Assembly (NCBI GenBank): GCA_963784785.1
Contig: CAWASW010000015.1
Location: 2,149-66,148 of the forward strand
DNA length: 64,000 nt
Direction: 5' to 3'
From: Candidatus Woesebacteria bacterium
GTDB lineage: Bacteria > Patescibacteriota > Microgenomatia > UBA8517
The notes under the pieces were generated by a model that was given only the letters and a program-made list of their open reading frames with translations, made no database searches and was not told the DNA's origin. Shown here one piece after another: positions 42,596 through 60,106 of the stretch (its first letter is position 1; every line of letters begins with the position of its first letter). The position numbers were made by a program, and so were the translations under genes.

Positions 42596-42634
42596 AAATA
42601 AATATTACCTTTAAAGGTCAAACCTTACAAGTAA

Positions 42635-42976
42635 TCAACTTGAATATTTTACAAATAGTTCTTCTCTGTCAGATTCAATCAATTTGAGCTGTTTTTCTAT
42701 ATTTTTGAGAGCTTCCGATAGCTCAGGCTTTTTACTAAAATCTAATATATTACTTACCTCAGCCCATTGTGACAAAAGGTGATGCCTTCTATTTTCAATA
42801 GCACTTCTTATATATTGAAATTGAATATGGCTACTTAAAGTATGCCATTCAGAAAAAGTTGCCAAATAATCTGGATTATACTCACCCATATCAACTGCCT
42901 TTTGAAGTGTCATCTTGCTAGCTGTTTTGGTAGAGCTGCTACTTTTGCCTTTTTCTAAATTATCTTCAAATCCCAT
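42635..42976 (-). CDS. hypothetical protein
   Basis: 113-aa ORF with no recognisable motifs. Confidence 0.4.
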   Translation of the reverse strand: MGFEDNLEKGKSSSSTKTASKMTLQKAVDMGEYNPDYLATFSEWHTLSSHIQFQYIRSAIENRRHHLLSQWAEVSNILDFSKKPELSEALKNIEKQLKLIESDREELFVKYSS

Positions 42977-42996
42977 ATCGTATATTATATACTTTC

Positions 42997-43515: not shown

Positions 43516-44558
43516 TGTAAATATGTTTCTAATATATCCACTACTTTTTCAGAGGCTTCTAGATCAGGACTTATAATATCCTTAGTTTTTTTAATAATCG
43601 CTGGATATTCGCCAATCAATATATCTATTTCTGCTAATAACCTTTGAGGCGTTAATTCTTTTTGATTAATAATCCTAGCAAGACCTAATTCTTCCATATA
43701 CTTAGCATTCTCGTTTTGTTCATCGTTATACGACCATGGTATAGGAATTAAAATTGATGGCCTCTTAATTGCCATTAATTCCCAGCACGTATTAGCTCCA
43801 GCTCGTCCAATCACGATGTCTGATTTAGATAATATTTCAGCCATATTTTTAGAATCTGTCTGGCCAAATGCAAAATATTTGTCACTCTTAATTTCACTAA
43901 ATTCATTCAAATTTTTTTCTCCGGTTTGATGCATTACGAAATATCTTTCGAATAGCCTAGAAAGAATTGGCTTTATTGCATCATTAATCCACTTTGACCC
44001 CCTAGAACCCCCAGTGATAAATATCGATTTGACTCTTACGTTTCTCGTTAAATCTAAATACTTTAATATCTCTTTGCTTAAGGGATTTCCAACCAAAACT
44101 GTTTTGTTTTTATTAAAGAAACGCGACGATGATTCCCTAGAGATTAAGATCTTTTTACAAAAGTAGCTAGATATTATATTTGCCCTACCGGCAGTTGAAG
44201 TCTGTTCATGAATAAATACTGGTATCCCTGCAAAGCTAGACCAAAACGAAGATATTGCACCCGCACTGCTTCCAAATGACAATACCAAATCAGGACCAAT
44301 TTCATTTATCAGTTTTTTACCTCTTAAAAAGCTAATTGGTATCTTTAAAAAAGAAGTTATAGTATTCTTTGTAAATTTATTTTCAATTTTTCCAGATTCC
44401 AAGTTATGGAAGATAATATCCAAATTGGTAAGGTTTTTGTATTCCATACCTACCCAATGGATTTCCCAATCTAAATTACGTTTTTTAATTTCTTCTATAA
44501 TAGCTATTGCAGTTGAACCTGCATGACTACCGGCGAGTAATAGTTTTTTTGGTTGCAT
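43512..44558 (-). CDS. murG: MurG, undecaprenyl-PP-MurNAc-pentapeptide GlcNAc transferase
   Basis: GT28 two-domain architecture. N-terminal LLAGSHAGSTAIAII, ITGGSRGS. Confidence 0.75.
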   Translation of the reverse strand: MQPKKLLLAGSHAGSTAIAIIEEIKKRNLDWEIHWVGMEYKNLTNLDIIFHNLESGKIENKFTKNTITSFLKIPISFLRGKKLINEIGPDLVLSFGSSAGAISSFWSSFAGIPVFIHEQTSTAGRANIISSYFCKKILISRESSSRFFNKNKTVLVGNPLSKEILKYLDLTRNVRVKSIFITGGSRGSKWINDAIKPILSRLFERYFVMHQTGEKNLNEFSEIKSDKYFAFGQTDSKNMAEILSKSDIVIGRAGANTCWELMAIKRPSILIPIPWSYNDEQNENAKYMEELGLARIINQKELTPQRLLAEIDILIGEYPAIIKKTKDIISPDLEASEKVVDILETYLQ

Positions 44559-45636
44559 ATCTACTAATATTTAATAGTATACCGCATGATCCTAGAATCA
44601 TCGATAGCGATGTGCCACCATATGAAAAAAATGGTAATGGTATACCAGTAAGTGGTGTTAATGCAGTCATAGATGAGATATTAAGTATCATTTGACCTCC
44701 GATCCATGCAGTGATACCAACAGCAAGCATTTTTGAAAATTGGTCAGGTGCGTTAGATGCAATTTTGAATGCTTTATATATAAAAAGTGCAAAAAGTGCA
44801 ATTAGTGCAAAAGATCCAACAAAACCGATTTCTTCTGCAATCGCAGCAAAAATTGAATCAGTTGAAGCTTCTGGCAAAAATAAAAACTTCTGACGAGATT
44901 GGCCAATTCCCAATCCGAACAAACCACCTGATCCAATTGCCAAAAGAATTTGTCTTATGTGATATTCCTTACCTAACGGATCAGAACCAACTTGTAAGAA
45001 TGTCATTAATCTATCTCTCCTATATGGTGAAACTAATATCAAAACACCTATACCAACAATTCCAGCAAACAAAGACCCTAAAAAATAAAGAATGGGGACT
45101 CCGGCAACAAAAATTTGTGTTATTCCAACCAAACCTACAACTAAAGTTGTACCTAAATCGGGTTGAAGCATTATTAACCCGCAAACAACAGCAAGTGGAA
45201 TAAAATATGCCAACGGATTTATAACTTTTTTATCTGATACCTTGGCCAGATATAAAGCAAGCGCTAACTTTACAACTTCTGAAGGTTGAAAATTTATATG
45301 TCCAACAGATATCCATCGCCTTGCACCAAGTGCCTTGAGTGATATACCAGGGATTAAGACAGCAATTAGAAGAATTACTGTAGTAAAGAAAAACGGCAAG
45401 GTAATTTTTTTCCAAAAACTGTAATGTATGTTACTTATAATTAACATAGCACTAATTCCTACTAAGGCCCAAATAATTTGTTGTCTTAGAAAATAAAACT
45501 TATCATTAAAGTAATTAAGTGCTTGAGGAGTTGAGATGTCTGCCACAAAAATTAGACCCAGAATTACAAGAATAACAATTAAATAAAAAAAACTTTTGTC
45601 GTATGGAGCTCTAATTCTTTCTTTTTTACGAATCAT
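44527..45636 (-). CDS. ftsW: FtsW (SEDS family), lipid II flippase / PG glycosyltransferase
   Basis: 10 TM helices with SEDS C-terminal motifs (PEASTDSIFAAIAEEIGF…PLTGIPLPFFSYGGTS). Start trimmed to MIRKKER. Confidence 0.8.
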   Translation of the reverse strand: MIRKKERIRAPYDKSFFYLIVILVILGLIFVADISTPQALNYFNDKFYFLRQQIIWALVGISAMLIISNIHYSFWKKITLPFFFTTVILLIAVLIPGISLKALGARRWISVGHINFQPSEVVKLALALYLAKVSDKKVINPLAYFIPLAVVCGLIMLQPDLGTTLVVGLVGITQIFVAGVPILYFLGSLFAGIVGIGVLILVSPYRRDRLMTFLQVGSDPLGKEYHIRQILLAIGSGGLFGLGIGQSRQKFLFLPEASTDSIFAAIAEEIGFVGSFALIALFALFIYKAFKIASNAPDQFSKMLAVGITAWIGGQMILNISSMTALTPLTGIPLPFFSYGGTSLSMILGSCGILLNISRYATKKTITRR

Positions 45637-46682
45637 ATTGTTGCTAACCAGAGGCCAAAAATCGCAAGAATTATGCCAGCAAGCCAGGCGCGCATAACTA
45701 CCTTCGGCTCCTCCCAACCAATTGCTAAAAATGTATTGTGAAGTGGAGCAATTTTTAAAATTGGTCTATTCAAGTATTTCCATCCAAATATCTGTACAAC
45801 TGAGGAGACAATCTCAATTACAAATATTCCTCCAATTACACAAAGAGCAATGATATTTCCAGTTAATAAACCAACTACAGCAAGTGTAGCTCCAAATGAT
45901 AAAGCACCTGTATCTCCAAGCCAAATTCTTGCAGGCCAAGTATTAAAATATAAAAATGCAATTAGCGCCCCAATCCACAATGAAATAAATAGAGATAATG
46001 GAGTATCCAAACTACTGGCGGCAATAACCCCAAAAGCCATCAAACAAATCATTAATAATCCAGATGCTAAACCATCAAGACCGTCAGTAATATTAATTGC
46101 ATTTGTAAAGGATACAATCACAAATGCAGCAAATGGAATGTAGAGCAATCCTAAATGTAGAGTTATTCCAAAAATTGGTATATATAGGATCTGGACTCCA
46201 AGAAATTTATAAATAAAAACAGAGATAATAGTAGCCAAAATCCATTGGTCTATAAACTTTTGTTTTCTGGTAAGTCCAAAGGCTAATCCCAAAGCACCTT
46301 GAGTAGGTTTACCTAACATTTTTATATAATCATCTAGCAAACCTAATAATCCAAAAGAAATAAAAGTAAAAAATATTGTGATCAACTCAAATCTTAAATT
46401 ATATGCAGTTTGGATAAAAACCCCTAGTCTGGAACTTAATGGGAATATCACTAAGAAAAGAACCACAACAATTGCAATAATAAGTACTCCTCCACCAACA
46501 GGTGTTCCAGCTTTTATATCATGTAATTTATCAAACAAAGGTATTTTTCCATGCTTTGGAGCCTCAACTTTTCTAGTAAATTTAATTTTGTAAAGAAAAT
46601 CTATAAACGGAACAACAAGCAAAGATGTAATTGAAAATGAAAATATCACTAAGCCTAACGCTAGAGGTAAAAAGTTCTGCAT
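45633..46682 (-). CDS. mraY: phospho-N-acetylmuramoyl-pentapeptide transferase MraY
   Basis: Polytopic protein with conserved DDxxK-like LLDDYIK and NAINITDGLDGLA. Confidence 0.85.
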   Translation of the reverse strand: MQNFLPLALGLVIFSFSITSLLVVPFIDFLYKIKFTRKVEAPKHGKIPLFDKLHDIKAGTPVGGGVLIIAIVVVLFLVIFPLSSRLGVFIQTAYNLRFELITIFFTFISFGLLGLLDDYIKMLGKPTQGALGLAFGLTRKQKFIDQWILATIISVFIYKFLGVQILYIPIFGITLHLGLLYIPFAAFVIVSFTNAINITDGLDGLASGLLMICLMAFGVIAASSLDTPLSLFISLWIGALIAFLYFNTWPARIWLGDTGALSFGATLAVVGLLTGNIIALCVIGGIFVIEIVSSVVQIFGWKYLNRPILKIAPLHNTFLAIGWEEPKVVMRAWLAGIILAIFGLWLATI

Positions 46683-46685
46683 ATC

Positions 46686-47672
46686 TTAATATATCATCTT
46701 TTCCACAAGCTTGTCTAAGTAAATAGATCTTGAACCCTTAATTAATATATAATTATTTGGTTTTAAATATTTTGTAATATCAAGCAACACATCAATAGAA
46801 TTTTTATATAAGTTAGGGGTTATTAGTTTTACCAATTTTCCTACTCCAAAGACTTTTTCAAAATTATATTTTTTAATTTCCACAGCAATTCTTTTATGTT
46901 CAGTCTCCTCAATTTTTCCAAGTTCTAGCATATCTCCAACAACTAAAAATTTTCTATTTCTTCCGGCAAGATTATTAAAGTATTTAAGCGTTGAAATAAA
47001 TGCTTCTGGATTACTATTGTAAGAATCATCAAGAATAACTGCACCAGATTTATGTTTAATTATTTGCAACCTATGTTTAGGGCTTTCATATAAGATTTCG
47101 TTAATTTCAATGCCTAATATTTCAGCAACTTTTCTGGCAGCATTCTTATCAGTTTCAATAGAATTTTCACCATTTTTAAACCAATATTCTTTTGCCTTCA
47201 AAGTAAATTTAAGATTTTTTAAATATTTATTATCTTCATTTAGAACTGCAATTTGAGAATTTTTTACAAGTTTACTTTTTTCCTTAAGCACTCCATTTTC
47301 ATCACCAAAATATAAGGTATGAGTTGCAAATATGTTTGTAATTACTCCAATTTTCGGCTTTACCATCCACATATAAAAATCCATTTCGTTTGGATACTCA
47401 ACACCCATTTCTAAAATTAAGTACTTAGTAAAAGGTGTACATCTTAAAATAGTTGAGGAAATATTAAAAACTGGGTCTATGTTATCTTTACTCCAAACAG
47501 TTTTACCGTGAAGTTTTAATATTCCTGCGAGCATTTCCTTAGTCGTTGTCTTTCCGGAACTTCCTGTTATTCCAATAACCATTAATCCGAATATTTTTTG
47601 CAATATCAATACATATACTTTAGCAATTATATTTTTAACTGGATGATAAATATATTTTTTGAATTGTTTCAT
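46686..47672 (-). CDS. murF: Mur ligase, MurF-like (compact, N-terminal domain reduced)
   Basis: P-loop GITGSSGKTTTKEMLAGIL plus Mur ligase middle and C domains. 328 aa. Confidence 0.7.
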   Translation of the reverse strand: MKQFKKYIYHPVKNIIAKVYVLILQKIFGLMVIGITGSSGKTTTKEMLAGILKLHGKTVWSKDNIDPVFNISSTILRCTPFTKYLILEMGVEYPNEMDFYMWMVKPKIGVITNIFATHTLYFGDENGVLKEKSKLVKNSQIAVLNEDNKYLKNLKFTLKAKEYWFKNGENSIETDKNAARKVAEILGIEINEILYESPKHRLQIIKHKSGAVILDDSYNSNPEAFISTLKYFNNLAGRNRKFLVVGDMLELGKIEETEHKRIAVEIKKYNFEKVFGVGKLVKLITPNLYKNSIDVLLDITKYLKPNNYILIKGSRSIYLDKLVEKMIY

Positions 47673-48403
47673 ATTTCTACTTTTTTAATTTTATCACTTA
47701 TATCATAACCTAAAAACATCTTGGCTGTTTCGATAAATCTTAGATTGACGTCAGTTAAGTAATATTTCTCTGTAAATACATTATCAATTTTAATTTTTGC
47801 TTTTATCTCTTCAATCAACTCTTCTGCTGGATCAACCAAATTTATTTTATCGCCCAAAAATTTACTAATTTTAGTTTTAATTATTGGATAATGAGTACAT
47901 CCTAAAATTAAAGTGTCTACTTTGTCTACAAAATCCTCTAAGTACTTTGAAATAAACAAATCAATTTCAGGTCCTTCTATAAAACCTTCTTCAATCAATG
48001 GTACTAACATAGTAGCATGTCTTCTTAAACTAACCATGTCATAAGCGTTACTATTAATTGTTGCTCTAGTACCAACCAACCCAATGCTATTCTTTGAAAT
48101 TAAAGTTGCTTTTTTCATAGCTGGTTCTATTACTCCATATACTGGCACACTGGAATGTTTCTTAACAATGTCTAGTGCAATTGAAGAAACGGTATTGCAC
48201 GCGACAATTATCAAGTCTACATTTTGGTCTAACAAAAACTGAGTATCTTCTTCTGCAAATTTCTTAACTGTTTCTGGACTTCTTGTTCCATATGGAACCC
48301 TTGCAGTATCACCTAAATACATAAAGGATGCGTTAGGAATTTTCTTTTTTAACTCTTTAACAACTGTAAGACCTCCTAAACCTGAATCAAATATACCGAT
48401 CAT
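47669..48403 (-). CDS. murI: glutamate racemase
   Basis: DSGLGGLTV, ACNTVSS, LGCTHYP. Confidence 0.85.
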   Translation of the reverse strand: MIGIFDSGLGGLTVVKELKKKIPNASFMYLGDTARVPYGTRSPETVKKFAEEDTQFLLDQNVDLIIVACNTVSSIALDIVKKHSSVPVYGVIEPAMKKATLISKNSIGLVGTRATINSNAYDMVSLRRHATMLVPLIEEGFIEGPEIDLFISKYLEDFVDKVDTLILGCTHYPIIKTKISKFLGDKINLVDPAEELIEEIKAKIKIDNVFTEKYYLTDVNLRFIETAKMFLGYDISDKIKKVEI

Positions 48404-49614
48404 TATAAGTTATTGACATCCTCCTTAAACTGATTACCTCGTTCTTTATAGTTTGCAAACATGTCAAAACTTGCAGCAGCTGGAGAGAGAATCGCTACAC
48501 CACCTTTTTCAGTTACTTCAAATGTCTTTTTTACAATTTCCTGCATTGAACTAGTTCCTAGATCATATATTTTTTTTGTTTTAATATATTTTTTTATTTG
48601 TTCTCTAATTTGACCTATTAAAATAACGTTTTTGACGTTTCCTGCCTTTTCAATTACCTTTCCTAATTCCTCATAATCAAGTCCTTTATCACTACCACCT
48701 AATATCAATGTCTCATCTTCTGCAAATGATTTAATGGCAGCAATAGTAGGTTGAGGTCCTGTAGCAAATGAGTCATTATAGAACTTGATCCCATCGACAT
48801 CTCTTACGAATTCTAGTCTATGTTCTAAACCTTTAAATTCTTTTACTGTTTTAACAATTATTCTCTCGTCAATATTTAGAATTTTTGCAACTGATACTGC
48901 AGCTCCAATGTTCTCTAAATTATGTTGTCCTCTTAAAATTAACCCTTTTATATATTTCTCATCTAGCTTTTTTTTGTTAAAAAATATTACATTTGCTTTC
49001 GTTTCTTTAGCAAAACTTTTTGGTACTTTGTATTCGCTATTTATAACCGTCCAATCAGATGTTTTTTGAAATTTGACTATATTTTTCTTAGCATCTATAT
49101 ATTCTGTAATATTTTTATGCCAATCCATATGGTCAGAAGTAATATTTAAGACAACTGCAATATCCGGTGAAACAGGAAGATCCATAAGCTGAAATGACGA
49201 CATTTCCAAAATCACGTACGATCTGCTATTTAATTTTGTCAATAGTTCCAAAGCAGGCTTACCAATATTACCTGCAAGATACACATCAAAATTGGCAGCT
49301 TTTAATATTTCATATATTAAAGTTGAAGTTGTTCCTTTACCTTTCGTTCCTGTTACTCCGATTATAATTCCATCAAACTGATCGAAAAATATATGTGTTG
49401 GTGTTGTAACTCTTTTTGTAGTTTTAATTTTATCTGGATATACTCCAGGAGATCTAACTACCAAATCAAATCTGTCTAAATTTTCTAGATAGTTTGGATT
49501 ATCTTTCTGATCCAAAACTGTAACGGAGGCCCCTTTTGACTTCAAGAATTTCTCAGCATCCTGACCCTCAATACCATTTCCAATTACTGCAACTTTTTTA
49601 TCTTTGTAGTTCAT
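48403..49614 (-). CDS. murD: UDP-N-acetylmuramoylalanine--D-glutamate ligase
   Basis: GVTGTKGKGTTSTLI P-loop and MurD N-terminal Rossmann KKVAVIGNGIEG. Confidence 0.85.
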   Translation of the reverse strand: MNYKDKKVAVIGNGIEGQDAEKFLKSKGASVTVLDQKDNPNYLENLDRFDLVVRSPGVYPDKIKTTKRVTTPTHIFFDQFDGIIIGVTGTKGKGTTSTLIYEILKAANFDVYLAGNIGKPALELLTKLNSRSYVILEMSSFQLMDLPVSPDIAVVLNITSDHMDWHKNITEYIDAKKNIVKFQKTSDWTVINSEYKVPKSFAKETKANVIFFNKKKLDEKYIKGLILRGQHNLENIGAAVSVAKILNIDERIIVKTVKEFKGLEHRLEFVRDVDGIKFYNDSFATGPQPTIAAIKSFAEDETLILGGSDKGLDYEELGKVIEKAGNVKNVILIGQIREQIKKYIKTKKIYDLGTSSMQEIVKKTFEVTEKGGVAILSPAAASFDMFANYKERGNQFKEDVNNL

Positions 49615-50573
49615 ATATTTATATATTGTACTTCTGGTTCTAATTTTATGCCGAATTTCTTAAAAACATCATCAATAATTGTATCAGCCAATTTTTTAAC
49701 ATCACTAAAATTTCCCTTACCATTTGGATTTGTTAAAATTAATGCATGTTTATCGGAAACTTTAACTGGACCTAATGATTTTCCTTTCCAACCAGCCTTT
49801 TCAATTAAATAGCCAGCAGATATTTTGTATAAATTCCCAGTTTCATAAAATTTCATATCAGAATATTTTTTCTCAAATTCTTCCTTCATATTTTTGGTTA
49901 TGAATGGATTTACAAAAAAAGAACCAGCATTAGGCATTACTTTAGGATCTTCTAATTTTTGTGTCCTCTGTGTCAGCACATCATTTCGTATTTTATTTAA
50001 ATCTAAATTATTATCATAATCTAATTTAAACGTAACATCAGTAATTATAAATTTTTGCCAATATTTTTTTGACTTGAAAATACTTTCTCTATACCCAAAT
50101 TTACAATCGTCTTTACTAAACTTAGTGAATTTTTTATTTTCAACATCGTATGCAGTAAGCTCATAAAAAGTTTCAGATACCTCTTGTCCATATGCTCCAA
50201 TATTTTGTATTGGAGAGGCACCTACAGTTCCGGGAATACCTGACAGTGATTCCATGCCAGCCAATTTATTTTCAACTGTAAATTTTACCAAGTCATCCCA
50301 AACAACGCCTGCTTCGGCAACAACCAAATACTTGGAGTTTTGGATTTTTTGTATCTTTATTTTTTTGCCTATATATTTAACTACGACACCATTAAAATCA
50401 TTGTCAGAGACTGCAATATCGCTACCGCCCCCAATAGTAAAAATTGAAAGTTTTTTGTCTTCAGCAAACTTAACTATAGAAACTACTTCCTCTTGGTTTT
50501 TAACCATAAAGAAATATTTTATATTACCTCCAATTTTTAATGTTGTAAGTTGTTTAAAACTTGTTTTGCCCAT
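49611..50573 (-). CDS. murB: UDP-N-acetylenolpyruvoylglucosamine reductase
   Basis: FAD-binding N-terminus (TTLKIGGN…) and the MurB C-terminal domain. Confidence 0.8.
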   Translation of the reverse strand: MGKTSFKQLTTLKIGGNIKYFFMVKNQEEVVSIVKFAEDKKLSIFTIGGGSDIAVSDNDFNGVVVKYIGKKIKIQKIQNSKYLVVAEAGVVWDDLVKFTVENKLAGMESLSGIPGTVGASPIQNIGAYGQEVSETFYELTAYDVENKKFTKFSKDDCKFGYRESIFKSKKYWQKFIITDVTFKLDYDNNLDLNKIRNDVLTQRTQKLEDPKVMPNAGSFFVNPFITKNMKEEFEKKYSDMKFYETGNLYKISAGYLIEKAGWKGKSLGPVKVSDKHALILTNPNGKGNFSDVKKLADTIIDDVFKKFGIKLEPEVQYINI

Positions 50574-51721
50574 AAGCTGCTATTTCCTGCACCCATAACA
50601 ACAATTACTTCGTAATTGCAATTTTCAATTTCCAGTTTCCAATTTCCAATAAATTTCTCGATATCCTCAACAACTCTTATATTCTCGTGTTCGGATATTT
50701 TGGCAACATCTTCAATGGTTATAGTTGGATCCGTTTCATCACGTGCTTTAAAAATTGGGCCAATAATTACAGAATCGACACTATCAAATGCATTTTTATA
50801 CAATGATAATAATGCCTTTGTACGTTTATATCCATGAGGTTCAGCGACTGCCAATATTTTTGCAGTAGGATATTTTTCCCTAAGCCCTTCAAGAGTTGTC
50901 TTTATAGCAGTTGGGTGATGAGCATAATCATCATAAATAATTGTATTTTTAACTTTTCCAATTTGTTCCATTCTTCGTCCTATTCCTTCAAAATTTTCTA
51001 GGGACTTTACTATTTCCTCACTTCTAATTCCTAATTGTTGCCCTACTAGATACGCCATATTTGCATTTTTTTGATTATGGTCACCAAAGACTTTTAAATT
51101 AAATTGTTTTAACAAACTATCATTTTGAGAAAACAAAATTCCTCCTTGCTTCAGATTATTTTTGAATTTGTTAAAACTTTCTGCTAACTGTTTTTCATCT
51201 TTAAAATAATCGGGGTGATCAAATTCAATATTGTTAATTACTATTAGATCAGGTTTATAGTGTAAAAAGTTGTCATTAAATTCGTCGGCTTCAATAACAA
51301 AATATTTGCTTTTTCCAAATCTTGAGTTTCCACCCCACTCAGGGACATTGGCTCCTATTACTGCTGTTGGATCTAGTCCATTATCTTCTAAAATTTTACC
51401 TACCATTGCGGTAGTTGTAGATTTACCATGAGTTCCTGCAATAGCTATCACAAACTTATCCATCATTAGATATTTACCAACGAACTCCTCCCATGTTACC
51501 ATCATATTTTTAGCTATAGCCTGAAGAAGTTCAGGCTCTGACTTAGATTGATAAAGTACAGCAGGAGAAACAACGAGAAGATCAATACCATCTAGATGTT
51601 TTTTGTCATGGCCACCAGATTTTAGATCACAGCCAGTTACTTCATACCCCATTTTGGAAGCAAGCGAGGCTACACCACTCATTCCGCTGCCTGAGATACC
51701 CATCATATGGATTCTTTTCAT
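50537..51721 (-). CDS. murC: UDP-N-acetylmuramate--L-alanine ligase
   Basis: MKRIHMMGISGSGMSGVASLA…; AGTHGKSTTTAM. Confidence 0.85.
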   Translation of the reverse strand: MKRIHMMGISGSGMSGVASLASKMGYEVTGCDLKSGGHDKKHLDGIDLLVVSPAVLYQSKSEPELLQAIAKNMMVTWEEFVGKYLMMDKFVIAIAGTHGKSTTTAMVGKILEDNGLDPTAVIGANVPEWGGNSRFGKSKYFVIEADEFNDNFLHYKPDLIVINNIEFDHPDYFKDEKQLAESFNKFKNNLKQGGILFSQNDSLLKQFNLKVFGDHNQKNANMAYLVGQQLGIRSEEIVKSLENFEGIGRRMEQIGKVKNTIIYDDYAHHPTAIKTTLEGLREKYPTAKILAVAEPHGYKRTKALLSLYKNAFDSVDSVIIGPIFKARDETDPTITIEDVAKISEHENIRVVEDIEKFIGNWKLEIENCNYEVIVVMGAGNSSLWAKQVLNNLQH

Positions 51722-51744
51722 GTTATGAAGTATATTATACTTTA

Positions 51745-52707
51745 ATGATGGAAAATATTCTCGTTACAGGTGTTTCTGGAGAAGTTGGGTACGGACTTGT
51801 CAAAAAACTTCATGATCTTAAAAAATACAATGTAATAGCAGTAGATATTAAAGATCCAGAAATTTCTGCCTCAAAAAGCATCGATAAATTTATAAAGTGC
51901 GACATTCTTGATAACGAATTACTTAAAAAAATATTTGACGAAGAAAATATTGATTCAATAGTACATCTAGCCTCAATTTTATCAACAGGTGGAGAGAAAA
52001 ACCCAGAGCTTGCAACAGACATTAACATAACAGGAACGCTAAATTTACTTAAGCTTGCAACTGAAAATTCAATTAAAAATAAAAAATCAATTAAATTTAT
52101 TTTTCCTAGTTCAATAGCTGCCGACGGTAATCCTATTACTATTTATGGTATTTCGAAACAAGCCTGTGAAAATTTAGGAATATATTTTTCGAAACATTAC
52201 AAAGCACTCGACACTTCAATTAACCAAGCTAATTTAATAGATTTTAGATGTGTAAGATTTCCAGGATTACTTTCACCTGATACAGTACCTTCCGGAGGTA
52301 CTAGTGATTACGGGCCAGAGATGTTGCATGCAGCAGCTCAAGGCAAGGATTATGAGTGTTTCGTTAGACCAGACACCACAATTCCGTTTATGGCAATGAA
52401 CGATGCTGTAAAAATTTTATATCAATTACTTGAAACACCAAAGCAAAATATGACACAGGCCGTATATACAGTCAGTGGTTTCTCTGTTTCTGCAAAAGAA
52501 ATTGAAGAAGAAATTAGAAATGCTTTCCCAAATACAAAAGTTACATATAAAATTAATGAAGAGAGACAAAAAATTGTAGACAGTTGGCCGAAATCAGTTG
52601 GTTCAGAACAAGCGGAAAAAGATTGGGGATATAAATTGGAATATGATTTCAAGTCTACTTTCTCAGGATACTTAATTCCAAAAATTAAACTTCGATATCT
52701 AAAATAG
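51745..52707 (+). CDS. NAD-dependent epimerase/dehydratase family protein (extended SDR)
   Basis: ILVTGVSGEVGYGL glycine-rich NAD motif and YGISK catalytic Tyr-x3-Lys. Confidence 0.7.
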   Translation: MMENILVTGVSGEVGYGLVKKLHDLKKYNVIAVDIKDPEISASKSIDKFIKCDILDNELLKKIFDEENIDSIVHLASILSTGGEKNPELATDINITGTLNLLKLATENSIKNKKSIKFIFPSSIAADGNPITIYGISKQACENLGIYFSKHYKALDTSINQANLIDFRCVRFPGLLSPDTVPSGGTSDYGPEMLHAAAQGKDYECFVRPDTTIPFMAMNDAVKILYQLLETPKQNMTQAVYTVSGFSVSAKEIEEEIRNAFPNTKVTYKINEERQKIVDSWPKSVGSEQAEKDWGYKLEYDFKSTFSGYLIPKIKLRYLK

Positions 52708-53695
52708 CTTCTGCAAGTTTTATTGGATCATGTCTTAAAAGGTGTTCTTTCTTTAAATATACAGAAACAGATTTTTTAATAATTTTTATGTTACAGTCAA
52801 GCTCCTCGATCTTTGTTTCGTCAACTTCAACCATGTTTTGTCCTTCTTCTTTGTAGATCTCTAACATCTCAGTGTCTAAATGATTATCGTTTATTATCAA
52901 ATAATTTATTCTATTTGGTAAATCAAGATAATACATAAAATGTTTCAAAAAATCAGAAGCTTTGTAATCATCTGTTTCCCCTGCTTTAGTCATTAAATTT
53001 AATACAAGAATTAATTTTGCCTTAGAGTTTTCGATTGCTTCTCTTACACCCGAAACAAGCAGATGTGGCAATATACTTGTGTACAAATCTCCCTGAGAGA
53101 AAATTATTTTATCTGCATCTTTTATTTCTTTAATTAGTTCTGAATTGATTTCAGAACTAGTATCAAAATATATTCTAATTATTTTGTCATTAGGATCGTA
53201 ATCTCGATTTTTGACTCTCAGATCTATACTTGATTCACCATAAATTTGGCTACCTTTATTTGTCTCTGCAACAAGTTGTACTTTAGACAAACTAACAGGC
53301 ATTACTTTCGCCGAAACTCTAAATAATTTACATTCTGCCTTTATTCCTCGGTCCTGACCACTATATATATTATCCAATCTTGCAGTTAATAAGTTCCCAA
53401 AAGAATGTCCTTTTAATGGACCTGACAAATCCTCCAATCTATCGTCAAACAATTTTTGGGCCACTTTTCTTTGATTATCATCTTCCATCAACGCAAGGAC
53501 ACACCTTCTAATATCTCCAGGAGGTAAAACTCCAATCTCAGTTCTCAATCTTCCGGAGCTACCACCACTATCCCACGTTCCAGCAACTGCTGTAATTTTC
53601 TTGTTATCGTTTAATTCCCGAAGGCCACTCAGAAGTTGAAATTGCCCTGTACCTCCACCAAATGTAACTATTTTTTGTTTGTACTTTGACATCAA
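52685..53695 (-). CDS. YvcK/CofD-family (UPF0052, gluconeogenesis factor-like) protein
   Basis: IVTFGGGTGQFQLLSGL…ITAVAGTWDSGGSSGRLR. Confidence 0.75.
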   Translation of the reverse strand: MMSKYKQKIVTFGGGTGQFQLLSGLRELNDNKKITAVAGTWDSGGSSGRLRTEIGVLPPGDIRRCVLALMEDDNQRKVAQKLFDDRLEDLSGPLKGHSFGNLLTARLDNIYSGQDRGIKAECKLFRVSAKVMPVSLSKVQLVAETNKGSQIYGESSIDLRVKNRDYDPNDKIIRIYFDTSSEINSELIKEIKDADKIIFSQGDLYTSILPHLLVSGVREAIENSKAKLILVLNLMTKAGETDDYKASDFLKHFMYYLDLPNRINYLIINDNHLDTEMLEIYKEEGQNMVEVDETKIEELDCNIKIIKKSVSVYLKKEHLLRHDPIKLAEAILDIEV

Positions 53696-55593
53696 TTTGA
53701 AAGTCTTTTTAACATCTTTTTTTCTGCTTCTGCCAGTTGTTCTGGATTATTTATGCCTTGCCATTCGGAAGAATCAGGAAGTGTATAAACAGAAACTTTT
53801 TCTTTATTTCTTAAAGCGATCTCAATTAAATCAGGTAGATAATATTCCTTTGCAGCAGTATTCTTTTTGATATTAAAAATGTTTTTTTGTAGCCATTTGT
53901 AGTTAAAAATATACAGTCCGTCATTTACTTCTTTTATTCTCTTTTGATCTTCGCTTGCATTTTTTTCCTCAACCGTTCCTAATAAATTTCCTTTTTTATC
54001 TCTTACTACTCTTCCCAAACCAGTAGGATCATCTTGTATCAAACTAACAAAAGTTAATATTGACTTAGTTTTTTGATGTAAATCAATAACGTTTTTAATA
54101 GTTTTTGGGGTGTAAAAGGCACTATCATCTCCATTTATAACAAGTAAAGTTTCTGTATCTTTTGAAATTTTAGGGAATGCATTCAACACTGCGTTTCCAG
54201 TACCTAACTGCTTAGGTTGTATAGCGTATTCAACGTTTTTAGACAGTTGCTTAAGAACAACGTTTCTTTTATATCCCAAAACAGGAATTATCTCCCTTAT
54301 ACCCGCATTTCTTAAGTTCTCCAAAGAAAACGATATCATTGGTCGACCTGTTATCTGATGTAAAATCTTAGGTAGTGATGAACACATTCTTTTGCCTTTA
54401 CCACCTGCAAGTATTACACCTGTCAGATTCTCGTATCCACCCAATTGATTCTTTATAAAATCCTGATCACTCCAAGGATGTTCAAAGTGATCAAAACACA
54501 TAGACTTCTCATGTCCTTTTCCAAAAACTCCAATTATATCTCCCTTCTCTGCTATAGACATTGAATATGCAATTGCCTCACCTCTTTCTGGAATTGAGAC
54601 AAAATTATCGTTTACAGCACCACGTTTCATTTGCTTCAGAATTTTGAAAATACCTTCATTTCTTGGATCCTCAGCAGTTAAAACTGTAAAGTCAGCGGCA
54701 TTAGTCGATATTTTAGTCATTTTCGATCTTTTTCTTGGATCTCTTTCACCTGCACAGCCAAAAACAGATATTAATCTGCCTTTAGATATTGTTTTCAAAT
54801 ATTTAAGTGCAACTTCCAAAGAATCTGGCGTATGAGCAAAGTCTACAAAAATTCTGAAACCTTCATTATTCGGAACTTCTTCTAATCTGCCACTCGGTAA
54901 TTTAAAACTTTTTAGTGCCTTTAAGGACTCCTCTTTTTTAATCCCCAGTTCCTTGCATACTTCCATTGCTGTTTCTGCATTTATATTATTAAATTCTCCG
55001 GGAAGGATATTTAATTTTGTAGATTTAGGACTAAATATTCTATATTGTGCTGAATTAACAAACATCATTTTAACTCTTTTATATTCTTTAAAAGTCTTAT
55101 GGTAATCTAGATGCTCTGGCTGGATATTTGTCAAAACTGATATATCAAACTTTATTCCGGAGATTCGTCCTTGATCAATTCCATGCGAACTTACTTCTAG
55201 TACAACATATTCATAACCATCTTTAACCATATCTGAAAGCTTTTTGTTCAATGTGATAATATCCGGAGTAGTAGTATGGAACCCTTCTACAGAAATAGTC
55301 GATATCAGACCTACTTTCTTGCCAACACTTGTTAAGATATGATGAATAATATGGCAAGTTGTTGTTTTACCCTTTGTGCCTGTAACCCCGATAACCTTTA
55401 ATTTACTACTGGGATTTTTATAATAGTCTGAAGCTAGTTTCCCTAAAATTTGTTTCGTATCTCCTCTATCGTAAATTACAGAAGCACCTCTTCTTTTTGC
55501 ATCATCAATATAATCATGACCATCAACAGTTTGACCTTTGATCGCAACGAAAATATCACCTTTTTTGACTTTCCGTGAATCAAATTGAATCAT
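53692..55593 (-). CDS. murE: fusion protein: MurE-like Mur ligase (N) + GlmU-like sugar-1-P nucleotidyltransferase (C)
   Basis: N-terminus GVTGTKGKTTTCHII and DFAHTP (Mur ligase). The C-terminal ~240 aa have GVILAGGKGKRM, QLGTGNAV and LVINGDD (NTP_transferase). No left-handed beta-helix acetyltransferase domain. Confidence 0.75.
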   Translation of the reverse strand: MIQFDSRKVKKGDIFVAIKGQTVDGHDYIDDAKRRGASVIYDRGDTKQILGKLASDYYKNPSSKLKVIGVTGTKGKTTTCHIIHHILTSVGKKVGLISTISVEGFHTTTPDIITLNKKLSDMVKDGYEYVVLEVSSHGIDQGRISGIKFDISVLTNIQPEHLDYHKTFKEYKRVKMMFVNSAQYRIFSPKSTKLNILPGEFNNINAETAMEVCKELGIKKEESLKALKSFKLPSGRLEEVPNNEGFRIFVDFAHTPDSLEVALKYLKTISKGRLISVFGCAGERDPRKRSKMTKISTNAADFTVLTAEDPRNEGIFKILKQMKRGAVNDNFVSIPERGEAIAYSMSIAEKGDIIGVFGKGHEKSMCFDHFEHPWSDQDFIKNQLGGYENLTGVILAGGKGKRMCSSLPKILHQITGRPMISFSLENLRNAGIREIIPVLGYKRNVVLKQLSKNVEYAIQPKQLGTGNAVLNAFPKISKDTETLLVINGDDSAFYTPKTIKNVIDLHQKTKSILTFVSLIQDDPTGLGRVVRDKKGNLLGTVEEKNASEDQKRIKEVNDGLYIFNYKWLQKNIFNIKKNTAAKEYYLPDLIEIALRNKEKVSVYTLPDSSEWQGINNPEQLAEAEKKMLKRLSN

Positions 55594-55600
55594 CGTTTAA

Positions 55601-56887
55601 TTAAATTTCCTCAATTTCTGCACCTAGTTTTTTCAAATTCTTCGAAAAGTTTGGATGACCTCTATAAAGTGCATCTGCATTTAGTATCGTTGTTTCTCCT
55701 TCTGCCATCATGGCACACATTGTCATTGCAACAACAGCTCTAATAATATAAGGAGCCTCAAGTTTAGCACCAGTTAATTTATTGCCGGCATTTATTATCA
55801 CCCTGTGTGGATCTGCCATAATGACATTTGCTCCAAGTTTTGATAATTCTGATGTCCAAAATAAACCTGATTCATACATCCAATTATGAAATAATATATT
55901 TCCTGACTTTGCAGATAGCGCGATAGGGACAAATAAAGGCAGCATATCGACAGGTAAGCTTGGCCAAGGCTGTGCTTTAATAACTAAAGTATCACTATCG
56001 AAATCGTCAATCTTAATATCTTGATTGGCAGCAACTACTGCTTGATCATTATTATATTTTATATTTATATTAAATTTCGAAAAAACATGATTTATATGAA
56101 CAGATAAGTCAGGTAATGAATCATTTACTTTTATTTCACCCTTAGTTACTGCTCCAAGTGCTAAAAACGTTGCGATTTCGTAATGGTCAGATAGTATTTT
56201 ATATTCATTTGGAGGGGTTAACTTATCTATTTTTTCAATTATTAAAACACTTGAGCCTATACCATCAATTTTCGCTCCAGATTTTACAAGCAGACGACAT
56301 AAATCTTGAACTTGCGGCTCTGATGCAGCCCCAATTATTGTAGTTTTCCCTTTTAATCCAACAGCTAACATAATTACATTTTCTGTAACAGTAGGGCTCA
56401 TTTCAGTAAGCCATAGAGTTGTAGCTTTAGCAGCTTTTGCATCCATTGAAACTCCACAAAGGGATGGTTCTATTTTGACGTTAAGTTTTTTAAATGCATC
56501 AAAATGAGAGTCTAATGGCCTTATTCCAAGTGTGCATCCTCCAGGTAATTCCTCAAAGGAAACCCTTCCGAATCGGGAAAGCATTGATCCCCAAAGTAAA
56601 GATGTGCCCCTCATGTTTCCAAAATCATTCTTTGAAACTGAATTGTAAGTTAAATTTGAATTATCTATTTCTAATTCAAGAGAATCCTTATTCCAACTTA
56701 TTTTAGACCCAAGACTTTCTAATATTGAGACTAAATGGCCAACGTCTGTAATATCTGGAATATTTTTTAATTTAATAGGTTTATCAAATAGTACTGTTGC
56801 AGATATTAACGCCACAGCCGAATTTTTACTTCCTGAAGGAGTAATCTCGCCTGATAATACTTGGCCTCCTCTTACACGTATGTTCAT
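55601..56887 (-). CDS. murA: UDP-N-acetylglucosamine 1-carboxyvinyltransferase
   Basis: MNIRVRGGQVLSGEITPSGSKNSAVALISATVL and the EPSP-synthase fold length. Confidence 0.85.
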   Translation of the reverse strand: MNIRVRGGQVLSGEITPSGSKNSAVALISATVLFDKPIKLKNIPDITDVGHLVSILESLGSKISWNKDSLELEIDNSNLTYNSVSKNDFGNMRGTSLLWGSMLSRFGRVSFEELPGGCTLGIRPLDSHFDAFKKLNVKIEPSLCGVSMDAKAAKATTLWLTEMSPTVTENVIMLAVGLKGKTTIIGAASEPQVQDLCRLLVKSGAKIDGIGSSVLIIEKIDKLTPPNEYKILSDHYEIATFLALGAVTKGEIKVNDSLPDLSVHINHVFSKFNINIKYNNDQAVVAANQDIKIDDFDSDTLVIKAQPWPSLPVDMLPLFVPIALSAKSGNILFHNWMYESGLFWTSELSKLGANVIMADPHRVIINAGNKLTGAKLEAPYIIRAVVAMTMCAMMAEGETTILNADALYRGHPNFSKNLKKLGAEIEEI

Positions 56888-56908
56888 ATATATCTAGTGA
56901 TAGTATAC

Positions 56909-58573
56909 CTAATTTTCTGGCTGAATGCCAAAAACCTGAAATAAATCTCTTGCTATAGAATACCACAATGGAGCGGCAGTTTCAGAAGCCCATTGAGAAC
57001 TTTGTGGTTCCTTCAACGTAACTATCATCACAAACTTAGGGTCATCTGCCGGAGCAAAGCCAACAAAACTTGCAATTGTTTTTGTTTCGTCATAATGACC
57101 TTCAATAGGAATTTGGGCAGTACCCGTTTTTCCAGCTATATTAAATCCTTGAAGATTTGTCCATTTCGATTCTCCATATTTTGAAGATTGAATCATAATT
57201 TCAGTCATTTTTTTGGAAGCCTCAGTTGAAATAATTCGTTTTCCATCAGTATGATCATTTACCACAACCTTCGGCTGAACAAGATATCCTCCGTTTGCAA
57301 TTGCAGCTACAGCTCTAACTAGTTGTATTGGTGTAGTTGCTACTCCTTGACCAAATGATGAGGTCATTAAGTCAACTATATTCCACATTCCTTTCTTACG
57401 AAGAGGGACACTTGCTTCACCTTGCAAATCAATACCTGTAAGTTTACCTATACCAAATTTATCTAGATATTCATACATTTTATCCTCACCTAATTTTTGA
57501 GCCACAAAACTCATACCCACGTTATCTGAGTGTACTATCACATCTGTCATTGTTGAGTCTGGGTGGTATTTGTTATCCCAAGTATTGATATAATATTTAT
57601 CAACTTTCAGAGGTTTATCGCATATATCGCACTTTGTATCTGGTTCAACCAGCTCAGCATCAAGTCCCGCAGCCATAACAATTACCTTAAAAACAGATCC
57701 TGGTTCAAATGTGTCAGATATTGCAGGGTTACGGTACAAAACTCCATCGTATTCATAATATTTTGCAGGATCATAAGATGGATATGAAGCCATACCTAAA
57801 ATACCACCACTTTTTGGATCCATAACAATAACAGACCCTTCTTTGGCCCCATATTTTTCCTGAGCTTCCTTTAATTTTTCTTCTATTGAAGTCTGTATAC
57901 GTTTATCAATATAAGTATTTAAATCAGTTCCTGACATTGAATTTGCTTCCTGAAGGCCTTCTGAAAGAAGCGGTGCTCCTTTTAGATCTTTTTTCCTCTC
58001 CTGATATCCAGACTTTCCAGTGAGTGATAAATCATAGTAACCTTCTAAACCAAAATATCCAGTGTCCTTTCCTTCGTTATTTTTTCCGACAAAGCCTAAC
58101 AATTGGGCAGAAGATGAACCTTCAGGGTAAAATCTATTTTCTTCAGGATCAAAACCTAACCCCTTAATATTCATGTCAATTATTTTTTGCTTTATATCAC
58201 TTGTGAGTCTATGCCTAATTGGAACCCAGACGGAATCTTTTTTATCAATCAGCTCTTGTATACGTTCTACTTCTAGTAAAATATTTTCTTCACTCACAAA
58301 TAATGGAGCAAGTAAGTTTGCAATTTCTTTCGAAGATTTATTTATTTTCTTTGTTTCAGCAAAAAGTAACCAATTCGTACGCATAACAGCAAACCAGGTC
58401 CCATCACTGGCATATATGTTACCCCTTGATGCTTCAATTTTCTTAGACCCACTATACTGATATCCAGCTTCAGTATTTAATTCTTGGCCCTTAATAATTT
58501 GCCAATAAAAAAGTCTAGATAATACTGCTGCAAAAAGAAATCCAAAGAAAACTATAGTAATTTTTAGCCGCAT
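56909..58573 (-). CDS. ftsI: penicillin-binding protein 2/3 transpeptidase (FtsI-like)
   Basis: N-terminal TM, dimerisation domain, SxxK (GSVFKVI), SxN (HSDN), KTG (AGKTGTA). Confidence 0.85.
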   Translation of the reverse strand: MRLKITIVFFGFLFAAVLSRLFYWQIIKGQELNTEAGYQYSGSKKIEASRGNIYASDGTWFAVMRTNWLLFAETKKINKSSKEIANLLAPLFVSEENILLEVERIQELIDKKDSVWVPIRHRLTSDIKQKIIDMNIKGLGFDPEENRFYPEGSSSAQLLGFVGKNNEGKDTGYFGLEGYYDLSLTGKSGYQERKKDLKGAPLLSEGLQEANSMSGTDLNTYIDKRIQTSIEEKLKEAQEKYGAKEGSVIVMDPKSGGILGMASYPSYDPAKYYEYDGVLYRNPAISDTFEPGSVFKVIVMAAGLDAELVEPDTKCDICDKPLKVDKYYINTWDNKYHPDSTMTDVIVHSDNVGMSFVAQKLGEDKMYEYLDKFGIGKLTGIDLQGEASVPLRKKGMWNIVDLMTSSFGQGVATTPIQLVRAVAAIANGGYLVQPKVVVNDHTDGKRIISTEASKKMTEIMIQSSKYGESKWTNLQGFNIAGKTGTAQIPIEGHYDETKTIASFVGFAPADDPKFVMIVTLKEPQSSQWASETAAPLWYSIARDLFQVFGIQPEN

Positions 58574-58586
58574 TTTAATATATCTG

Positions 58587-58883
58587 TTACCTCATACTAG
58601 CAACAGAATCTATAGAATTAAAGTAGAGAACCTTAGAAGGTTTGGCAAAACCTAACTTTATCACATCTTCTGAATTCTTAGTCCCTTCACCTTTTTCAAA
58701 TATATTTTCTGACAATTCTCTTTTGGCTATTACTGAATTTTCCAACTTGTCCTCAAGATTAGAAATTTCTACACCACGGCTTGCTTGCTCTATGCCTAGA
58801 AAGACAACACCGACAAGAAGTATTAAATTCACTATCCAAATTAATTTGTAATTAATTTTTTGTATAGACATATAGTTTTGCAC
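58587..58883 (-). CDS. ftsL: FtsL-like cell division protein
   Basis: 98 aa, single TM followed by a coiled coil. Position between rsmH and ftsI. Confidence 0.55.
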   Translation of the reverse strand: MQNYMSIQKINYKLIWIVNLILLVGVVFLGIEQASRGVEISNLEDKLENSVIAKRELSENIFEKGEGTKNSEDVIKLGFAKPSKVLYFNSIDSVASMR

Positions 58884-59685
58884 TCCTTGATCTAATATTT
58901 TTGTTAATTTCTGAATAACTTGGAATTCTGATTTTCGTTCTTAAATTCATATATTTTTGTACTATTTCTTCTTCACCAGAGTGAAAAGTGATTATCAATA
59001 ACCTTCCATTTTTTTTCAAGAGGCCAATGGCCTCCGGTATAACCTTATCTAAATTATCAAGTTCGCTATTTACTGCAATTCGTAAAGCTAACATTGGTAA
59101 AGTGGCAGGGTTTAGATGTTCCTTATGAGGTATATCTTTCAACACCTCGACAAGTTCAGATACCTTATATATCGGTCTTAATGTCATAATTCTGCTTGCA
59201 ATTCTTTTGGATTCGTTGTGTGAGAGTACTCTTTCAAAAAGATGCGTAAGTTGAGTTTGGTCAAGAACATTTAACAAATCCGACGCCTTTACCCCCTGTA
59301 CTTCAGGATTAAGTCTCATATCAAGATCTTGATCTGGGTTGCTAAACGAAAAACCTCGTTCATCCTCTTTTAAATGTAAATTTGACACACCTAAATCAAA
59401 AAGTATTCCGTCCGTCTCTTCAAATCCATTATCTTTTGCAATTTTTAATAAATTGTCAAAATTACCTAAAACTAATTTTGAATTTGTCCCTGCTAATCTG
59501 TCACTAGCAATTGATAACATCTTTGGATCAGCTTCGATACCTAGGACCTCTCCCCCTGCGTTTAAAATTGCCTCAGTGTGTCCACCGGTACCTAAAGTGC
59601 AATCAACAATACGTGAACCGGTATTAACATGCAAGCTTTCTACAACTTCTTTAACTAATACTGATTCATGGTAATTATTTGTCAT
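58852..59685 (-). CDS. rsmH: 16S rRNA (cytosine1402-N4)-methyltransferase RsmH (MraW)
   Basis: ESVLVKEVVESL…IVDCTLGTGGHTEAIL. Confidence 0.85.
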   Translation of the reverse strand: MTNNYHESVLVKEVVESLHVNTGSRIVDCTLGTGGHTEAILNAGGEVLGIEADPKMLSIASDRLAGTNSKLVLGNFDNLLKIAKDNGFEETDGILFDLGVSNLHLKEDERGFSFSNPDQDLDMRLNPEVQGVKASDLLNVLDQTQLTHLFERVLSHNESKRIASRIMTLRPIYKVSELVEVLKDIPHKEHLNPATLPMLALRIAVNSELDNLDKVIPEAIGLLKKNGRLLIITFHSGEEEIVQKYMNLRTKIRIPSYSEINKNIRSRSAKLYVYTKN

Positions 59686-60106
59686 TTGCTAGTTTTTCAA
59701 TTATTTCAAACGCCTCTTTTGCCAAACTTTTTTGTTTCTCTTCCCAAATCTTGCTGTCCCAAATTTCTACCCTATCTCCTAAGCCTATGAAACTAACTTG
59801 ATCAGTTAGCTTTGCATAAGATGTCAAAATTTCAGGCAACACAATCCTTCCTTGATCATCAGGTAGAGTATTATAAGCTGACCCCAAGATAAATCTTTCT
59901 GTTTCTCGTATCGGAGAAACTATTATCTTTTGATCCCCTACCAATCTTTTGTAAAGTGCATTCCAACTATCCTCAGCAACCAAAACAAGACATTCTTCGT
60001 ACCATTTGGCTAAAATATATTTTTCTCCCAATTCCGAACGTAGAGGTGCTGGTATGAAGATTCTTCGACCATTTGCAACTTTGATCTGATATGTTCCTAA
60101 TAACAT
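59675..60106 (-). CDS. mraZ: transcriptional regulator MraZ
   Basis: MLLGTYQIKVANGRRIFIPAPLRSEL and a second SpoVT/AbrB-like repeat with DDQGRIVLP. Confidence 0.85.
   Translation of the reverse strand: MLLGTYQIKVANGRRIFIPAPLRSELGEKYILAKWYEECLVLVAEDSWNALYKRLVGDQKIIVSPIRETERFILGSAYNTLPDDQGRIVLPEILTSYAKLTDQVSFIGLGDRVEIWDSKIWEEKQKSLAKEAFEIIEKLANDK

Follow-up and report, generated by a model that had tools for sequence, protein, structure and literature searches.

Is an open reading frame (ORF) that joins a Mur ligase to a nucleotidyltransferase domain a genuine bifunctional gene, and what would its product do? The question is raised by a locus in a low-GC (ca. 33%) genome segment of 64,000 nt from a Candidatus Woesebacteria bacterium (contig CAWASW010000015.1 of assembly GCA_963784785.1; this whole stretch of DNA is hereafter called the window), a member of the Candidate Phyla Radiation (CPR, or Patescibacteria). 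On the minus strand of the window, at 53692..55593, a single ORF with an ATG start encodes 633 aa (plus stop) in which MurE is followed by the N-terminal, uridyltransferase half of GlmU (GlmU-N), without the left-handed β-helix (LβH) acetyltransferase half. The analyses described below indicate that this murE::glmU-N fusion is a real, widespread and apparently undescribed chimera; full-text searches pairing Patescibacteria or CPR with GlmU yielded no published description of it. It is most likely (a probability of ca. 80%) a bifunctional enzyme of CPR bacteria of the Microgenomates/Woesebacteria type, born as a fusion between neighbouring genes, one of which encoded an LβH-less GlmU module.

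The two halves of the fusion protein

Pfam profiles place the N, M and C domains of Mur_ligase at aa 1-360 of the ORF product and NTP_transferase at aa 392-629. Overall, the domain identifications were obtained with E-values of 1e-45 to 1e-117, well past chance. The initial annotation had described one ORF carrying both a MurE ligase and a GlmU-type C-terminal domain, which the Pfam, NCBIfam and PDB matches bear out, and all the motifs that it had quoted are found in the translation (GVTGTKGKTTTC at aa 69-80, DFAHTP at 251-256, LAGGKGKRM at 395-403, QLGTGNAV at 459-466 and NGDD at 487-490).

The MurE part (aa 1-385; 54439..55593, minus strand) is composed of a short N-terminal domain, a trimmed middle ATPase domain and a C-terminal domain. 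It scores above the curated cut-offs of both TIGR01085 (393 bits, cut-off 257) and NF001126 (387 bits, cut-off 373), and its best PDB matches are the MurE structures 8f5d, 4bub and 2wtz. When the corresponding part of an AlphaFold2 (AF2) model was compared with MurE structures using Foldseek, template modelling (TM) scores of 0.6-0.7 on the target were obtained. The three-domain Mur ligase fold is recognizable with its ATP P-loop GxTGTKGKTTT (GVTGTKGKTTTC, aa 69-80; 55354..55389, minus strand), the Mg-binding Glu and His residues and K175 (55069..55071, minus strand), which occupies the site of the lysine that is carbamylated in Mur ligases and is aligned with the Lys of "KAKL" in 4bub. By motif equivalence, we take K175 to be K224 of E. 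coli MurE. Across an alignment of 81 sequences, on which all residue conservation and junction statistics given here are based, the invariant positions of this half comprise the P-loop (G69, T71-T73 and G75-T78), E133, H161/H165, K175, DFAHTP, R284/D285/K288/R289, E308-D309 and R311. From these features we infer that the N-terminal part is a MurE amino-acid ligase acting on UDP-MurNAc-L-Ala-D-Glu.

The GlmU-N domain (aa 392-633; 53695..54420, minus strand) ends in the arm helix. Models of GlmU, which span ca. 450 positions, match it over positions ca. 2-240 only (231 bits, E 2e-68), so that the LβH acetyltransferase half is absent; Pfam detected no Hexapep domain in the fusion protein, which stops 18 aa after N615. 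Since half of the model is absent, the NCBIfam equivalog cut-off for GlmU is not reached (231 vs 450 bits). Against all PDB sequences, the domain aligned almost without gaps with residues 5-244 of S. pneumoniae GlmU (E 1e-45), all GlmU entries being ranked at E <=1e-31 and ST0452, RmlA and the GDP-mannose pyrophosphorylases (GMPP) at E >=7e-10. The C-terminal part of the AF2 model superimposed on 1g97, a GlmU structure with UDP-GlcNAc and Mg2+, at 1.6 Å over 241 columns. The reading of this domain as the uridyltransferase half of GlmU devoid of the acetyltransferase β-helix, already made in the initial annotation, thus stands. An identity as RmlA, GalU or MurU was rejected: with an E-value of ca. 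1e-7 for RmlA versus 1e-45 for GlmU, the best-scoring family is not an unrelated NDP-sugar pyrophosphorylase, which the same annotation had named as the outcome that would strip the fusion of pathway significance.

Active-site residues are conserved in this half as well. G398, R402, M403 and K409 of the pyrophosphorylase signature (LAGGKGKRMCSSLPK, aa 395-409; 54367..54411, minus strand) are invariant, as are Q459, G464-T465, D489, E542 and N615, and N557 is kept in 80 of the 81 sequences. Signature position 401 varies, with Thr in 45 sequences, Lys in 19 (including the window protein) and Ser in 13. On the basis of the alignment with the E. coli enzyme, R402, K409, Q459 and G464-T465 presumably correspond to its R18, K25, Q76 and G81-T82, and D489, E542, N557 and N615 to its D105, E154, N169 and N227. 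The presence of invariant catalytic positions in both halves indicates that both are under purifying selection. Compared with the bifunctional GlmU enzymes of S. pneumoniae (1g97/1hm9) and E. coli (1hv9), the fusion protein has the same pyrophosphorylase domain, the same signature (L-x2-G-x-G-(T)-R-M-x4-P-K), the same active-site positions and the arm helix. It differs from them in the absence of LβH, and thus of GlcN-1-P acetylation and of an LβH-driven trimer, and in domain order, the pyrophosphorylase being N-terminal in GlmU and C-terminal of another enzyme here. The domain is accordingly predicted to convert GlcNAc-1-P and UTP into UDP-GlcNAc.

Conservation of the fusion and of its junction

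A search of 5.8 billion proteins for relatives of the fusion listed 120 cluster representatives sharing 54-100% identity with it, every one of which possesses both sets of domains (120/120; 630-714 aa). These sequences, from NCBI, JGI, ENA and Logan assemblies, go in databases by the name "Mur ligase family protein [Patescibacteria group]" or are entered as MurE of Candidatus Woesebacteria. A scan of genome contigs with generic Mur motifs was dominated by ordinary MurE genes, and five CPR loci from it could be used. In five independent assemblies of distant fusion carriers (L001, L081, L083, L084 and L085), the fusion lies within the same core order of the division and cell wall (dcw) cluster. 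The search for relatives that the initial annotation had recommended therefore finds the fusion throughout, and an arrangement that it had considered unusual is not rare but widespread in Patescibacteria.

The junction (aa 379-391; 54421..54459, minus strand) is devoid of a linker. From W374 of the MurE part to G398 of the GlmU-N domain the distance is exactly 23 residues in 80 of the 81 aligned proteins. Clusters with less than 50% identity, some of them having an untrimmed MurE, show the same spacing in seven of nine cases, the other two having 22 and 26 residues. All aligned proteins end 17-25 residues past N615, which means that none of them carries an LβH. In the AF2 model built from the 81-sequence alignment (mean predicted local distance difference test, pLDDT, 91.7; predicted TM score, pTM, 0.88), the last MurE helix (aa 376-384) leads directly into the β1 strand (aa 387-396) of the nucleotidyltransferase fold, with pLDDT values of ca. 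89-94 over the junction and no disordered linker. The protein as modelled is made of two intact, conserved catalytic modules that are rigidly joined. A structure search with this model retrieved no solved PDB chain covering both the MurE and GlmU-N parts; a rigid and compact bifunctional protein of this kind would be tractable for structural work and enzymology.

Natural chimeras of Mur enzymes have been surveyed (Shirakawa et al. 2023, PMC10214165), the pairs reported being MurE-MurF, MurC-Ddl, MurC-MurB, MurG-MurC, MurD-FtsW and MraY-MurG. The same authors explained non-sequential pairs by co-expression, stability and complex assembly rather than by hand-over. Since unidentified species were left out of their survey, CPR metagenome-assembled genomes were removed from it. 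Like these chimeras, MurE::GlmU-N unites in one polypeptide the products of adjacent dcw genes for peptidoglycan-precursor enzymes and is conserved across genomes, and its head-to-tail, linker-less junction at the MurE C-terminus recalls that of B. pertussis MurE-MurF (8f5d). Unlike them, its partner is a nucleotide-sugar pyrophosphorylase of the pre-Mur (Glm) stage, which does not figure in the published list. The fusion thus adds a new partner to a list that is used in arguing for a cytoplasmic Mur complex. Because the database names in use, "MurE" and "Mur ligase family protein", refer to the ligase alone, the predicted UDP-GlcNAc-forming activity goes unrecorded in hundreds of CPR genomes, and metabolic reconstructions would mis-score glmU as absent or as fully present.

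Origin and putative role of the uridyltransferase module

The fusion gene is part of a dcw cluster located at 39059..60106 (minus strand), in the order mraZ-rsmH-ftsL-ftsI-murA-[murE::glmU-N]-yvcK-(SDR epimerase, plus strand)-murC-murB-murD-murI-murF-mraY-ftsW-murG-…-ftsA-ftsZ. The murA gene (55601..56887, minus strand; NF006873, 337 bits vs a cut-off of 297), whose product consumes UDP-GlcNAc, is located only 7 nt upstream, in agreement with the adjacency noted in the initial annotation. At its 3' end, the fusion overlaps by 4 nt a yvcK/glmR homolog (52685..53695, minus strand; TIGR01826, 254 bits vs 196; Pfam CofD) that belongs to a UDP-GlcNAc-binding family. In B. subtilis, GlmR of the YvcK family is a regulator of GlmS (PMC6171935, PMC7525490), and for Listeria a role of this family as accessory uridyltransferase has been reported (PMC10128056). 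A location between murA and yvcK/glmR fits a role in UDP-GlcNAc supply. In seven of the eight CPR loci examined, yvcK lies one to three genes from the glmU-type gene, and in L085 the order is murA-yvcK-glmS-…-fusion.

Related GlmU-N modules also occur outside the fusion. In a Collierbacteria locus (L014), MurE is a separate protein of 407 aa, and a standalone GlmU-N of 248 aa (15134-15880) with 42% identity to the C-terminal domain of the window protein is encoded in a glmS / nagB-like / yvcK / glmU-N block. With this protein as query, 120 clusters were returned, all of ca. 180-283 aa and lacking Hexapep domains; their sources include Collierbacteria, Woesebacteria, Microgenomates and Moranbacteria. 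An exhaustive phmmer search with the window C-terminal domain against 1.84 billion representatives gave 1114 matches at E <=1e-30. Among the 141 of the best 150 that were classified, 93 are standalone, 23 have the length of canonical GlmU, 11 have short tails, six are MurE::GlmU-N, four have another N-terminal partner and four a large C-terminal partner; one further MurE::GlmU-N, P0081, was already among the 120 relatives of the fusion. Standalone CPR GlmU-N proteins correspond to the same module and share its cluster partners, yvcK and in some cases glmS, the difference being that they are free whereas the module is fused to MurE in the lineage of the window. Two of the four proteins with a large C-terminal partner are GlmU-N::MurC fusions (P0251 and P0254; TIGR01082, 339 and 295 bits), in which the module is likewise carried by a dcw Mur ligase, although by another ligase and in the opposite order. 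One of those with another N-terminal partner is a GlmM-like::GlmU-N protein, its partner resembling phosphoglucosamine mutase; P0364 and P0311 are of this type. No acetyltransferase is recognizable in the middle region of P0364, and this protein looks non-CPR. In the close Microgenomates relative L002, the slot following an unfused murE is occupied (4226-5476) by an archaeal-type gene encoding a nucleotidyltransferase with LβH (Arch_glmU, 273 bits), with a small HAD gene and yvcK next in order, which looks like a gene displacement at the same locus.

In a distance clustering of these domains, most MurE-fused GlmU-N domains group together and the MurC-fused ones are found beside standalone forms, so that the two types of fusion appear to be independent events; the tree is a rough UPGMA (unweighted pair group method with arithmetic mean) on p-distances, in which the number of fusion events is indicative only. 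In the simplest reading, a glmU-N gene without LβH has long belonged to the CPR dcw cluster, with murE and murC as its neighbours; a single early fusion with murE took place in a large clade, and an independent one with murC elsewhere. The fusion in the window lineage would have arisen when the stop/start boundary with murE was lost. In the resulting protein, the C-terminal domain would make UDP-GlcNAc for MurA and for MurG, and the N-terminal part would perform the MurE ligation of the third amino acid onto UDP-MurNAc-L-Ala-D-Glu. The likely benefit would be a fixed 1:1 co-expression, and UDP-GlcNAc synthesis may in addition be rigidly placed on a Mur-ligase assembly.

Several observations weigh against a bifunctional enzyme of this kind. 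The MurE part is trimmed, like other Mur ligases of CPR bacteria: ca. 20-25 residues are absent from its N-terminus and ca. 47 from the middle domain, beyond K175; the Mur ligase that the initial annotation had called complete is so with respect to its three domains, all of which are matched, but not in length. The same trimming affects MurC, MurD and MurF of the window. At the site of the DNPR motif that specifies diaminopimelate (DAP), the window protein has EDPR (aa 308-311; 54661..54672, minus strand) and the family as a whole (A/S)EDPR(S/T/N); among solved structures, the nearest relative altered in a similar manner is MurE of T. maritima (4bub; DDPR), which adds Lys. Because of this replacement, the third residue of the stem peptide is uncertain in these CPR bacteria. 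In the GlmU-N half, the window protein has a Lys for the usual Thr of the G-x-G-T-R signature. The pTM of 0.88 points only indirectly to a fixed arrangement of the domains, and at least one frameshift, in ftsZ, occurs elsewhere in the assembly. As to a source of GlcNAc-1-P, no LβH, glmS, nagB, glmM, second GlmU-like gene or HAD-GNAT gene was found in the window by tblastn, a hexapeptide regular expression and profile hidden Markov models. Finally, enzyme activities are predicted from sequence for every member of the fusion family.

Among the other explanations, the channeling arrangement suggested in the initial annotation is weakened by the pathway itself. UDP-GlcNAc formation and the MurE step are separated by the four reactions of MurA, MurB, MurC and MurD, which renders direct substrate hand-over implausible; tunnelling from one active site to the other is unlikely. 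Moreover, the module is mostly standalone (ca. 248 aa) and elsewhere fused to MurC. A true metabolon, in which GlmU-N would be docked rigidly on MurE within a MurA-F complex and the fusion would have been selected for flux control, is possible but on balance not the expected case. It would agree with the persistence of the fixed-length, linker-less junction in clusters below 50% identity, with the pTM of the model, with the repeated fusion of GlmU-N to its flanking Mur ligases, MurE as well as MurC, with the MurC::MurB fusions that occur next door in relatives and with the binding of other Mur enzymes by the Mur chimeras of B. pertussis (PMC10214165). Besides the distance between the two reactions and the free 248-aa form found in most CPR, the metabolon has against it that a fixed junction length can also result from common descent. 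It is improbable that the C-terminal domain activates another sugar-1-phosphate, whether MurNAc-α-1-P (in a MurU-like salvage to UDP-MurNAc), Glc-1-P or a sugar of the surface-glycan island, the latter having been the alternative proposed in the initial annotation. Specificity is not provable by sequence, the signature Thr is replaced in the window protein, the glycan island of the window has GT2, GT4, flippase and Wzy genes, and a supplier of UDP-MurNAc would suit a fusion to MurE or MurC as well. GlmU matches are nevertheless 35 or more orders of magnitude ahead of those of RmlA, GalU and GMPP, and on the standalone relative the MurU model reaches 29 bits (cut-off 250) vs 209 bits for GlmU. 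The GlcNAc-contacting positions Q459, G464-T465, E542, N557 and N615 are conserved, the residues of the domain are specific to GlmU, the presence of murA and murB implies that UDP-GlcNAc is needed, and the Collierbacteria homolog is grouped with glmS, nagB and yvcK. As for the island (ca. 21.3-27.4 kb), it is a separate block 26 kb away, and no support was found for a link between it and the fusion.

A non-catalytic GlmU-N that would sense UDP-GlcNAc or UTP and regulate MurE is less probable still. Such a role could be imagined for a domain that lacks the trimerizing LβH and is encoded next to the UDP-GlcNAc-binding regulator YvcK/GlmR, and there is a precedent in S. aureus GlmU, which is naturally impaired in its uridyltransferase site, a Ser (Ser169) at the position of N557 crippling the activity (bioRxiv 10.64898/2026.06.23.733835). 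Yet the window protein has retained Asn at this very position together with the catalytic and metal-binding residues R402, K409, D489 and N615, and the cluster showed no further uridyltransferase. A joining of the two halves through an error of assembly or sequencing, or the existence of two genes separated by a missed stop or frameshift, a concern raised in the initial annotation, is hardly credible. The 1-nt ftsZ frameshift at ca. 39,097-39,100 shows that errors of this type could exist in the same window, but the architecture is identical in all 120 listed relatives, which come from many samples and assemblers, and in 80 of 81 sequences the halves are colinear across a junction of constant length. 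Furthermore, indel errors mostly split genes, and an in-frame joining with conserved sequence on both sides is not typical of them.

Source of GlcNAc-1-P and other features of the window

If the fusion is the bifunctional enzyme proposed here, the absence of the acetyltransferase half implies that its GlcNAc-1-P would come either from scavenged GlcNAc or from a different acetyltransferase. In the window, the only match to the hexapeptide regular expression, at 28116, corresponds to a Gly/Val-rich stretch and was rejected as LβH. By analogy with other bacteria, salvage is a plausible source. In Capnocytophaga canimorsus, the GlcNAc-1-P uridyltransferase is monofunctional, and both GlmM and the acetyltransferase are absent; this host-dependent bacterium is auxotrophic for GlcNAc and feeds on the glycans of its host. 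Of 45 Bacteroidetes genera, 30 share the monofunctional enzyme (Renzi et al. 2015, PMC4358021). As in the window protein, GlmU_Cc of C. canimorsus and of many Bacteroidetes has the uridyltransferase part only, and it supports peptidoglycan synthesis from scavenged GlcNAc. In contrast, it is not fused to a Mur ligase. The likeness considered here is one of function, by which the CPR organism may be a GlcNAc auxotroph as well. Salvage would suit host-dependent CPR cells. A GlmU restricted to the N-terminal half, along with an "unidentified acetyltransferase", has also been described for NagU-containing bacteria (Fong et al. 2026 preprint), which differ in belonging to other phyla, in having no MurE fusion and in the co-occurrence of a eukaryote-like NagU.

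A replacement acetyltransferase is a plausible second route, for which gene context provides a lead. One protein, P0264, has a GlmU-N::HAD::GNAT organization, and the HAD-GNAT tail of this protein is homologous over the full length (33% identity, E 4e-66) to the product of a gene divergently adjacent to the fusion in L083. This HAD-GNAT family (323-424 aa) adjoins murE::glmU-N divergently in three lineages, the genes being located at 2388-3410 (minus strand) in L083, 8001-9131 in L084 and 8001-9173 in L085; the L085 block also carries glmS, and the small HAD gene of L002 matches the HAD half of the family. HAD-GNAT is therefore regarded as a candidate for the missing GlcN-phosphate N-acetyltransferase. 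A more far-reaching proposal, which we regard as rather doubtful, is that many CPR bacteria make UDP-GlcNAc without the LβH of GlmU, a GNA1-like HAD-GNAT protein performing N-acetylation on GlcN-6-P or GlcN-1-P, its HAD half possibly acting as a mutase or phosphatase, and the uridyltransferase being hard-wired onto Mur ligases so that the metabolon starts at UDP-GlcNAc formation. For host-dependent CPR bacteria, the question raised is whether GlcNAc is scavenged or acetylated by another enzyme, the HAD-GNAT neighbour being a specific candidate for the latter; the missing acetyltransferase step and this candidate are a more interesting consequence than the fusion itself.

Other observations concern the dcw cluster and its surroundings. 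The Mur ligases encoded at 46686-47672, 48403-49614 and 50537-51721 (all on the minus strand) are all short and match the Mur_ligase_M profile only in part; MurF of the window has only 328 aa, and its N-terminal domain is not detectable. The murC and murB genes (49611-51721, minus strand) are separate ORFs that overlap by 37 nt. They are also split in L085, and a single MurC::MurB protein of 733-735 aa is encoded directly after murE::glmU-N in L081 (11989-14190), L083 (5342-7543) and L084 (3871-6078). The possibility that the split in the window results from a frameshift was rejected: with an in-frame TAG two codons upstream of the murB ATG and a similar split in L085, it looks genuine. In L083, a MurL-type epimerase gene (PF26299/PF26298; 7540-8772) is located between murC::murB and murD, with FemAB and DegT genes downstream; the window has murI nearby. 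The ftsZ gene (38650-39826, minus strand) is interrupted by a 1-nt frameshift near 39097-39100, one frame ending in "…ENRAQMAARARSELTTIGSIN*" and another continuing with "…ELAVSSPLLDLSIEGARGVLFNIAGG…IATGF", which reflects either an indel error of the assembly or a pseudogene.

Two genes with an IS200-like Y1 transposase domain were detected at 41924-42595 (minus strand) and 61119-61790 (plus strand), with similar N-termini (…YHVYNRGV-KR-IF), of which one, inserted in the dcw cluster, separates murG from the ftsQ-like/ftsA genes. Outside the cluster, a second gene of the FtsW/RodA family (34457-35491, minus strand) lies beside a gene for a class I aminoacyl-tRNA synthetase of 970 aa. Finally, a type IV pilus-like block (1944-12285, minus strand) encodes a PilB-type ATPase (T2SSE), a PilC-type platform protein (T2SSF) and several small proteins with prepilin-like N-termini, and is followed by genes for a Cache/PAS histidine kinase and a response regulator (12665-15268).

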